A stretch of DNA of 64,000 nt from positions 1-64,000 of IMG/VR virus record IMGVR_UViG_3300045970_000794; one strand, written 5' to 3'. A model generated the notes under the pieces. The model worked only from the letters and a program-made list of their open reading frames with translations, made no database searches and was not told the DNA's origin. Positions 39,768-40,312 of this stretch are shown in pieces (position 1 is the first letter of the stretch; the number at the start of each line of letters is the position of its first letter). The stretch comes from a virus. The translations under genes and the position numbers were made by a program.

Positions 39768-40312
39768 TAGCCCCAGAGAGATTTGAACTCTCAAGATATC
39801 TTTCAATCGCTAGTTATTAATTATTTCTTTTTTCTGAAACTAGGTGTTTGCGCATGACAATTACAACACAAAATTTGTAAATTATTAAAATTATTATTAA
39901 ATCTATTACCATCCATATGATGCAATTCTAATAATATTGGTTTATCATTCCATTCAGTTAATTTACAGATATCACATTTGTCATCTTTATAACCTTCTTC
40001 AATCAATAATTCTTTCAATCTACAACTTCTAACTGAATCAGTTTTAATATATTCTAAAGCAGTTCTTTTTCTAGGACTTCGCTTACCTTTACTACCTTGA
40101 TTACCTTTATAAATTATACCCAGTTTATTAAGCCACCAATTAAGTGTTTCATGTTTACATTTTAACTCCTTACATATGTAAGATTTCGAATAATTAGCTG
40201 AAATCCATTCAGTAATTTCCATTTTTCTATCTTCAATATCTGTTCTCATAATAATAAATATGGTTAAGTTGTGAAAAATAACTAGTGCGTTTACCAGTTT
40301 CGCCATGGGGCC
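39768..40312 (-). tRNA. Leu-type (long variable arm) tRNA gene interrupted in the anticodon loop by a 466-bp insert carrying an HNH ORF
   Basis: 5' part at 40312-40281: GGCCCCA-TG-GCG-AAACTGGTAAA-CGC-A-CTAGT. 3' part at 39814-39768: ACTAG-CGATTGAAAGATATCTT-GAGAG-TTCAAAT-CTCTC-TGGGGCT-A. Confidence 0.6.
39821..40249 (-). CDS. HNH homing endonuclease with an N-terminal HTH, located inside a tRNA anticodon loop
   Basis: Start trimmed to MRTDIED; LELHHMDGNRFNNNFNNLQILCCNCHAQT. Its stop lies 6 nt before the 3' anticodon-stem strand. Confidence 0.75.
   Translation of the reverse strand: MRTDIEDRKMEITEWISANYSKSYICKELKCKHETLNWWLNKLGIIYKGNQGSKGKRSPRKRTALEYIKTDSVRSCRLKELLIEEGYKDDKCDICKLTEWNDKPILLELHHMDGNRFNNNFNNLQILCCNCHAQTPSFRKKK

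Follow-up and report, generated by a model that had tools for sequence, protein, structure and literature searches.

Homing endonuclease genes normally spare their host, lying within self-splicing introns or inteins or between genes. What becomes of a transfer RNA (tRNA) gene, then, when an endonuclease gene lies bare in its anticodon loop? This question is raised by a locus in the IMG/VR virus record IMGVR_UViG_3300045970_000794, of which we analyzed positions 1 to 64,000 (hereafter, the window, to which all coordinates refer unless they follow the handle of another locus). On the minus strand of the window, a class II tRNA-Leu(UAA) gene is present in two halves (40312-40281 and 39814-39768) around a 466-nucleotide (nt) insert that carries an HNH endonuclease gene. 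We favor, with a probability of about 0.8, the reading that a naked homing endonuclease cassette disrupted this tRNA gene, in or close to the homing site of the endonuclease family, that the disruption is tolerated by redundancy, and that it is probably recent.

A tRNA-Leu(UAA) gene split in its anticodon loop

The split gene, the parts of its insert and the nearest intact paralog are as follows.

40281-40312, minus strand: 5′ half of the split tRNA-Leu(UAA) (sequence; 25/26 identity to cellular tRNA-Leu(UAA); ARAGORN on spliced constructs)
40250-40280, minus strand: 31-nt spacer from the stem to the ATG, made up of old-loop T32 (40280) and a 30-nt AT-rich cassette leader
39821-40249, minus strand: HNH homing endonuclease gene, F-TflIV-like, 142 amino acids plus stop (open reading frame; PHROG; homology; family alignment)
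39815-39820, minus strand: loop remnant TTAATA, directly after the stop codon (sequence; comparison with the intron-type exons CTT/.../AAAA described below)
39768-39814, minus strand: 3′ half of the split tRNA-Leu(UAA) (sequence; T-arm scan; acceptor pairing 7/7)
40519-40594, minus strand: intact tRNA-Leu(UAA) paralog, 200 nt upstream of the split gene (ARAGORN; Rfam tRNA, 51.9 bits)

The first-pass annotation of this DNA, made without database searches, had described two halves of a Leu-type class II tRNA closed over the insert by a CTAGT/ACTAG stem. All of its coordinates are confirmed, and the split element is real. The 5′ half reads GGCCCCA-TG-GCGAAACTGGTAAACGC-A-CTAGT and comprises an acceptor strand (40312-40306), U8 and G9, a Leu-type D arm of 3 base pairs (bp; 40303-40287), A26, and the anticodon-stem strand CTAGT (40285-40281). 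The 3′ half comprises ACTAG (39814-39810), a 17-nt variable region (39809-39793), the T arm GAGAG-TTCAAAT-CTCTC (39792-39776), the acceptor strand TGGGGCT (39775-39769) and a discriminator A (39768). The acceptor strands pair at 7/7 positions, with a single G.U at 1:72 that is common to the three other tRNA-Leu genes of this phage, and the anticodon strands pair at 5/5. When the halves are joined by any 7-nt loop, ARAGORN calls an 86-nt class II tRNA; the class II cloverleaf, the Leu-type D arm and A73 are all present.

Strand complementarity is weak evidence that the halves belong to one tRNA, because the same acceptor and anticodon pairing, with G.U allowed, arises in ~5% of shuffles of DNA with this AT-rich composition (31% G+C). 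The statistical weight for tRNA identity lies in the likeness to real tRNA-Leu genes and in the canonical D and T arms. Over its first 26 nt, the 5′ half matches genuine tRNA-Leu(UAA) genes, whose loop is CTTAAAA, at 25/26 positions; a degenerate-pattern scan located these genes in metagenomic cellular contigs and alphaproteobacterial metagenome-assembled genomes (MAGs). An independent assembly (Logan SRR35488805, L003/L004) spans the whole split element with 0 mismatches. The notion of an assembly chimera or a chance resemblance, which can draw on the weakness of the helices-only test, is thus refuted by the second assembly, the 25/26 identity, the canonical arms and the ARAGORN calls on spliced constructs, and we give it practically no weight.

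When run with intron tolerance on the unspliced sequence, ARAGORN calls a tRNA-Leu(taa) across the insert, with a 450-nt intron. We dropped its intron model, which forced a TAGTT/AATTA stem within the insert, and preferred the CTAGT/ACTAG stem. The closing helix can be extended to 9 bp (CTAGTTATT/AATAACTAG). We considered this longer helix as a processing signal and rejected it: its chance probability is ~0.02-0.03, and the 4 additional pairs, missing from two other split genes (L036 and L052, below), are probably a coincidence.

The insert consists of an endonuclease cassette and lacks a ribozyme

The insert is made up of 31 nt, the open reading frame (ORF; 40249-39821, 142 amino acids plus stop) and 6 nt, just as the first-pass annotation had it, so that its noncoding sequence amounts to 37 nt. 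The last 6 nt, TTAATA, correspond to anticodon-loop positions 33-38 (U33, the anticodon UAA, U37 and A38). Because T32 precedes the cassette and these positions end the insert region, we place the cassette between positions 32 and 33. This register is the best one; insertion between positions 34 and 35 is possible if mutations are assumed at two positions of the loop, and requires A33. The anticodon loop is interrupted by 459-466 nt, and any 7-nt loop rebuilt with the anticodon UAA has U37 and no purine at that position.

The initial view that so little noncoding sequence leaves no room for a group I ribozyme was borne out. Rfam models (39000-41200, E ≤ 10) detected no group I intron, group II intron or small self-cleaving ribozyme, and the same scan recovered five neighboring tRNAs. 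Sister elements at this site do have a ribozyme (see below), and no trace of their core blocks GTGTAGAGACTATA and CCTAAG is found in the 37 noncoding nt of the window or at the end of the ORF. The 3′ exon is preceded by A or T instead of the terminal G of the group I site. Thus, of the two marks of a group I intron in tRNA-Leu(UAA), a ribozyme core and a site between U34 and A35 with a terminal G, the window has neither. A bulge-helix-bulge motif is also absent, the junction helix CTAGTTATT/AATAACTAG being continuous and without bulges. Finally, the cassette contains no complete replacement tRNA-Leu, but consists of leader and ORF only. We refer to this arrangement, in which complementary halves of one tRNA-Leu flank an HNH gene of this family without a ribozyme, as a naked split.

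Because the window copy has neither a ribozyme nor a spare tRNA, it is most likely unable to give rise to a functional tRNA. The phage could do without this copy, since the intact tRNA-Leu(UAA) at 40519-40594 remains.

The endonuclease belongs to a family that resides in phage tRNA arrays

Judged by its sequence, the ORF is an intact endonuclease gene from a family that is at home in phage tRNA arrays. The full length of the protein aligns with the hegA product of phage BF23 (F-TflIV; 45.5% identity over 99% of the query) and with an HNH protein of Erwinia phage Cronus (50.7% identity). The Cronus gene is located between tRNA-Leu and tRNA-Tyr, and hegA likewise lies between tRNA genes. PHROG HNH families match the ORF at E = 2.5e-22, and Pfam's own models give no match at E 0.01. 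The HNH catalytic motif and the zinc-binding cysteines are present (ELHHMDGNRFNN...NLQILCCNCH), and all 29 columns that are invariant in a 15-member family alignment are kept (29/29). The ORF and the tRNA array share a strand, and an identical protein is encoded on a 362-kilobase (kb) contig from the Joint Genome Institute (JGI). The protein is predicted to cleave DNA at a specific site, for which the tRNA-Leu anticodon loop is the candidate.

We compared about 120 genomic contexts of the family overall. The close relatives of the window HNH (55-76% identity) all lie in tRNA arrays adjoining tRNA-Leu genes. Those with 59-70% identity are free-standing beside such genes. In two of the close relatives (L007 and L022), the HNH gene abuts the 3′ end of a complete tRNA-Leu. 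In four others, decayed tRNA remnants alone stand beside the HNH gene (L010, L011, L018 and L028). Upstream of L010, L018 and L011 there is only a decayed Leu-type D-arm remnant, 37 nt from the ATG as in the window, and these three loci also have the leader sequence of the window cassette; the shared spacing suggests that a tRNA-Leu gene was invaded once, in an ancestor, and that its tRNA parts then decayed. L011 and L028 retain a T-arm-plus-acceptor remnant downstream as well and are decayed splits. The right-hand junction is different in each lineage. HNH proteins of this family probably target tRNA-Leu genes, with the anticodon stem-loop, as DNA, for their probable homing site.

One locus (L024) was considered as a second split and rejected, since its orphan 5′ half fails to pair with the downstream tRNA's anticodon arm and is a partial duplication. 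A flanking 217-residue protein could not serve to anchor synteny: annotated phages have no homolog of it, and the contigs that match exactly are identical copies of the window. Cellulophaga phage phi4:1 was dropped as a cultured comparator because it shares the DNA ligase alone and has no tRNA array in the segment examined.

In the wider family, the interrupted tRNA is restored by a group I intron or accompanied by a spare tRNA

A scan of IMG/VR with the family profile yielded 80 loci. An HNH gene between complementary tRNA-Leu halves, in the arrangement we call intron-type, is found in 10 of the best 37 and in 4 more lower in the list, and so in at least 14. Three further loci are naked splits that carry a tRNA of their own.

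L031-L035, L037, L041, L045, L047, L059, L086, L089, L095 and L100 (IMG/VR): intron-type loci, with the HNH gene in a group I intron between U34 and A35 of tRNA-Leu(UAA)
L036, 2349-2977: naked split with cargo tRNA-Leu; two complementary halves, no ribozyme
L052, 2390-3091: naked split with cargo tRNA-Leu; two complementary halves, no ribozyme
L082, 2221-2838: naked split with cargo tRNA-Leu; two complementary halves, no ribozyme

The intron-type element is ~800-850 nt long, with 196-252 noncoding nt 5′ and 119-161 nt 3′ of the ORF. Its 5′ exon ends in the stem followed by CTT, and its 3′ exon, preceded by G, begins with AAAA and the stem. This pattern (CUU/...g/AAAA) is the classical group I site of tRNA-Leu(UAA), Leu.3Ug of subgroup IC3 (10.1101/2020.01.27.920355; PMC3984707). 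The G before the 3′ exon is found in 10/10 intron-type loci. The same 10 loci share the conserved blocks AATTCGGCGAAA, AACGCCGAGCTAA, GTGTAGAGACTATA and CCTAAG, which we take to resemble IC3 ribozymes such as that of Azoarcus. At the gathering threshold Rfam missed the introns of these loci; we made the group I assignment from a permissive Rfam threshold, which gave weak Intron_gpI matches in 2 loci (23 and 20 bits), together with inspection of the junctions and covariation. In intron-type constructs from which the ORF had been deleted, RNAalifold found 73 consensus pairs, 40 of them with compensatory changes; the covarying pairs include the tRNA's own stems and a long-range helix that spans the ORF site.

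In two intron-type loci, L095 and L100, the HNH gene and the tRNA lie on opposite strands. Several structured RNAs lie near the tRNA arrays of relatives (L035, 622-1215 and 3121-3233; L037, 3122-3250; L045, 3106-3175; L033, 2192-2262); they comprise ROOL, RAGATH-33 directly 3′ of an intron-bearing tRNA-Leu, skipping-rope, and a weak twister-P1 just 5′ of an intron-bearing tRNA. ARAGORN also calls possible suppressor-type tRNAs with the anticodons UUA and CUA (L019, 1005-1096; L035, upstream of the HNH gene).

In the cassettes of L036, L052 and L082, a complete tRNA-Leu lies upstream or downstream of the HNH gene, within the cassette, which looks like a homing endonuclease bringing a replacement for the gene that it disrupts. 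L036 has kept TAGGA after the ORF, and the stop codon of its HNH gene is the old anticodon. In a neighbor-joining tree, the intron-borne HNHs form one clade, and the window HNH falls in a sister clade of free-standing members, beside L007, L010 and L018. Three outcomes occur in one family at one target: restoration by a ribozyme at the RNA level, compensation by a spare tRNA at the DNA level, and decay where nothing compensates. The split gene of the window is an uncompensated case in which both halves are still intact.

Weighing the explanations

According to the reading that we favor, the HNH protein would recognize the DNA of the anticodon stem-loop of tRNA-Leu genes, and the cassette would be copied into the target by break-induced recombination, for which the two tRNA halves would provide homology arms. 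Once interrupted, the gene would be a null allele, whose loss redundancy would make cheap; each homing event would renew the arms, which would then look new. Relatives restore the tRNA by means of a ribozyme or a cargo tRNA, which implies that RNA-level repair of a naked insertion does not take place. The first-pass annotation had left two options, a tRNA killed by a free-standing endonuclease gene or an RNA matured by a protein-dependent cut-and-ligate route. The former fits the comparisons, namely the full-length F-TflIV-type HNH protein, its place in a free-standing clade, the decayed relatives and the compensated relatives; for the latter we found no positive evidence.

Several observations nevertheless speak against a dead tRNA gene. 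Both halves are flawless, though the window HNH differs by 30-40% from relatives that have decayed remnants, and a long-dead pseudogene should carry lesions. Their pristine state would probably be due to recent insertion or to renewal of the arms at each homing. The loop that has been kept is nearly complete (UUAAUA), and the minimum-energy fold of the 545-nt transcript pairs the halves, keeping the acceptor, D and T arms. The phage also encodes, beside its tRNA array, proteins for the healing and sealing of RNA:

10504-11067, minus strand: metallophosphoesterase
18922-20046, minus strand: fusion of an HD domain and a P-loop kinase
21319-22071, 56714-57538 and 61511-62641, minus strand: three RNA-ligase-family proteins (two PF09414 and one T4 Rnl1-type)

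Furthermore, tRNA-Phe(GAA) (33743-33833, minus strand; Rfam tRNA, 56.8 bits) has a clean 17-nt insert in its anticodon loop (GATTAGCAATAATCTAC, between TT and GAAAG) relative to three paralogs in the window and two orthologs, and this insert is not group I. Lastly, comparison with related phages, which had been proposed as a way of locating the insertion point, turned up split, decayed and intron-bearing states and no empty-site allele. Exact scans of viral contigs for either half did not find one; a metagenome scan gave no match to the uninterrupted tRNA; and the degenerate 5′-half pattern matched cellular tRNA-Leu(UAA) genes only, providing neither an empty allele nor a clue to the host.

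Most of these points would suit protein-dependent splicing, in which the precursor folds via its acceptor stem and a closing helix of 5-9 bp, an endonuclease excises the 459-466-nt insert, and phage end-healing enzymes with an Rnl1/Rnl2-type ligase reseal the loop, yielding a functional tRNA-Leu(UAA). The intact, complementary halves, the nearly complete loop remnant, the retained tRNA helices, the ligase, kinase and phosphoesterase genes, the insert of tRNA-Phe(GAA) and the 'enigmatic introns' reported in tRNAs of Lak megaphages (10.1101/356790) all count in its favor. We consider it very improbable, however. The closing helix is continuous, without a bulge-helix-bulge motif, and its 4 extra pairs are not found in other naked splits. 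Neither a splicing endonuclease nor RtcB is present among 55 ORFs (Pfam; a 64-kb window of a genome of roughly 362 kb). Each possible 7-nt spliced loop with UAA has U37, the folding z-score of the 545-nt RNA is only −0.82, and the closing helix is lost from the centroid structure. Among relatives, halves decay or are compensated by a ribozyme or a cargo tRNA, and no uncompensated split is conserved; the ligase kit is the usual phage set for tRNA repair; and the insert of the split gene has no similarity to the short inserts of the array. Ribozyme-free maturation in a looser form, in which the endonuclease mRNA is cut out of the enlarged anticodon loop by a nuclease of host or phage while the halves remain paired, and phage end-healing enzymes and Rnl1/Rnl2-type ligases reseal the loop, strikes us as a long shot. 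If true, it would mean that a bacterial virus has a pathway for protein-dependent tRNA splicing, and it would explain both the short non-group-I inserts of the array and the Lak 'enigmatic introns'.

Two other explanations concern the origin or the use of the arrangement. That the cassette is a degenerate group I intron, a claim about origin that leaves the tRNA dead either way, is suggested by the sister HNH clade in group I introns of the same loop of the same tRNA and by an insertion point 0-2 nt from the U34/A35 site. We regard it as unlikely: the window HNH is nested among free-standing members, outside the intron clade; its leader, at a fixed 37-nt spacing, is common to free-standing relatives; the core blocks are untraceable; and there is no G before the 3′ exon. 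Alternatively, the paired halves might be a tRNA-shaped scaffold whose RNase P and 3′-end processing sites excise, stabilize or limit the endonuclease mRNA. In favor of this, the ORF is co-oriented with the tRNA array, the acceptor, D and T arms persist in the minimum-energy fold, and a role for tRNA processing in controlling the expression of T4 SegB and the T5 F-Tfl enzymes has been proposed (PMC2330249). Close relatives, however, keep an intact HNH gene after losing one or both halves, and the folding energy is no better than that of shuffled controls, so that a scaffold seems quite improbable. Disruption by a homing cassette, without repair of the RNA, stands as our preferred account of the locus.

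The phage and its tRNA array

The phage has a genome of roughly 362 kb and probably infects Bacteroidota. The window encodes NAMPT and a DNA ligase, the latter with its best match in Cellulophaga phages (52.6% identity). A protein with a type IX secretion system (T9SS) sorting domain points to a Bacteroidota host, in agreement with the affinity of the ligase. Other features of the window are listed here.

31615-33204, minus strand: protein with a T9SS C-terminal sorting domain (Por_Secre_tail)
57983-59380: ATP-dependent DNA ligase
40316-40417, minus strand: element N, a 102-nt tRNA-like element (sequence, fold)
1978-2883, 8971-10503, 17608-18255 (plus strand), 38166-38684, 41054-41728 (plus strand), 55890-56669 and 60013-60645 (plus strand): other homing-endonuclease-like genes

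These endonuclease-like genes are of the GIY-YIG/NUMOD, HNH and PHROG 559 types, and two of them lie inside the tRNA array, flanking the split tRNA on both sides.

Element N has the CTAGT/ACTAG anticodon stem and the sequence ACTAGCGRTT of the split tRNA-Leu, with a 13-nt loop (AAAACATATACAA), and may share a history with it. A 95-nt Leu-type tRNA-like element (40601-40695, minus strand) likewise has AAAACAT in an abnormal loop; neither it nor element N was called as a tRNA, and the two flank tRNA-Leu genes. The anticodon loop is damaged in every Leu-type class II body of the window. The tRNA-Leu genes with canonical loops (40424-40498, 40519-40594 and 40792-40866, minus strand; anticodons UAG, UAA and CAA) are only 75-76 nt long and, unusually for tRNA-Leu of the bacterial type, lack a long variable arm; they have G1.U72 and A73 and are 82-86% identical to Leu-annotated tRNAs of T5-like and Aeromonas phages. 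Conversely, tRNA-Val(UAC) and tRNA-Cys(GCA) have long class II-like variable arms and measure 85-86 nt (40700-40785 and 41785-41870, minus strand), with counterparts in related phages (L007, 1689-1773; L010, 346-430; L011, 545-629). The long-arm tRNA-Cys(GCA) has a Ser/Tyr-like D arm and a discriminator T.

Farther along the array (33587-35043, minus strand), there are over-long tRNA-like elements of 155, 121, ~120, 132 and 113 nt, with paired acceptors, canonical T arms and aberrant middles. One (34584-34453) has a Leu-type 5′ half near-identical to that of the split tRNA-Leu and a 10-bp helix closing about 36 nt, and another (35043-34931) has two T-arm motifs. These elements may be what remains of rearrangements driven by endonucleases, or they may represent a class of inserts. 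The idea that the short inserts are leftovers of the HNH cassette was rejected, since local alignments were not significant against shuffled controls. A tRNA-Pyl(CUA) with a 79-nt insert, called by ARAGORN at 46994-47161, is probably an artefact of the tRNA-like element at 47314-47218.

Relation to known systems and significance

It was already known that phage tRNA clusters can house free-standing endonucleases, that tRNA-Leu genes can contain group I introns and that an endonuclease gene can split another gene. F-TflIV (hegA), a homolog of the window HNH, and F-TflI/II are free-standing HNH homing endonucleases of the tRNA gene region of T5 and BF23. Like the window HNH gene, hegA resides in a phage tRNA cluster and is co-oriented with the tRNAs; BF23 hegA, however, is intergenic, following tRNA-Ile, and encodes 228 amino acids with an extra C-terminal domain, whereas the window gene lies inside a tRNA gene. 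T4 SegB (PMC2330249) exemplifies intron-less homing in a phage tRNA region, as proposed here, but belongs to the GIY-YIG family, and segB lies between tRNA genes, none of which is split. The Leu.3Ug IC3 intron and its viral HNH-bearing versions share with the window the isotype, the loop and a site within 0-2 nt, and the viral versions also the HNH family; in contrast, the insert in the window contains only 37 noncoding nt, lacks both a ribozyme core and the terminal G, and gave no Rfam match. As of a 2014 review, no phage intron was known in a tRNA gene (PMC3984707).

In Aeromonas phage Aeh1, a free-standing HNH gene, mobE, splits the host gene nrdA (PMC3045599), much as in the window. There, the protein fragments reassemble into an active enzyme, whereas no route of RNA reassembly is evident here. 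Two further systems for comparison, an endonuclease that targets a tRNA anticodon region and a free-standing endonuclease associated with the insertion site of an intron, involve other nuclease families, and neither has its gene naked within the target. The Lak 'enigmatic introns' (10.1101/356790) are non-group-I inserts in over-long tRNAs of large Bacteroidota phages and are comparable to the insert of tRNA-Phe(GAA) in the window, which has the same isotype as one of them. The Lak inserts are short and without an ORF, and their removal has not been demonstrated; the split-gene insert, on the other hand, is an endonuclease cassette dissimilar to the short inserts of the window. Finally, archaeal and eukaryal bulge-helix-bulge introns and the split tRNAs of Nanoarchaeum resemble the window in having an intervening sequence in the anticodon loop and base-paired halves; the window differs in that it has no such motif, no EndA-type endonuclease was found in it, the phage is of bacterial type, and the site is 32/33, not 37/38. 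In the literature searched, we found neither a naked endonuclease gene in a tRNA anticodon loop nor cassettes with a cargo tRNA.

For annotation, the locus shows that standard tRNA finders can miss the split and over-long tRNA genes of phage arrays. The cassettes that combine an endonuclease with a tRNA suggest that such elements reshape phage tRNA arrays. The locus itself is a homing endonuclease gene bare in its probable target, and with its relatives it offers a good evolutionary series, not a new mechanism. Within one family and at one target, the endonuclease gene is found beside the tRNA, inside it without compensation, inside it with a spare tRNA, and inside it within a group I intron, a natural series that provides material for testing how mobile group I introns are assembled or dismantled.

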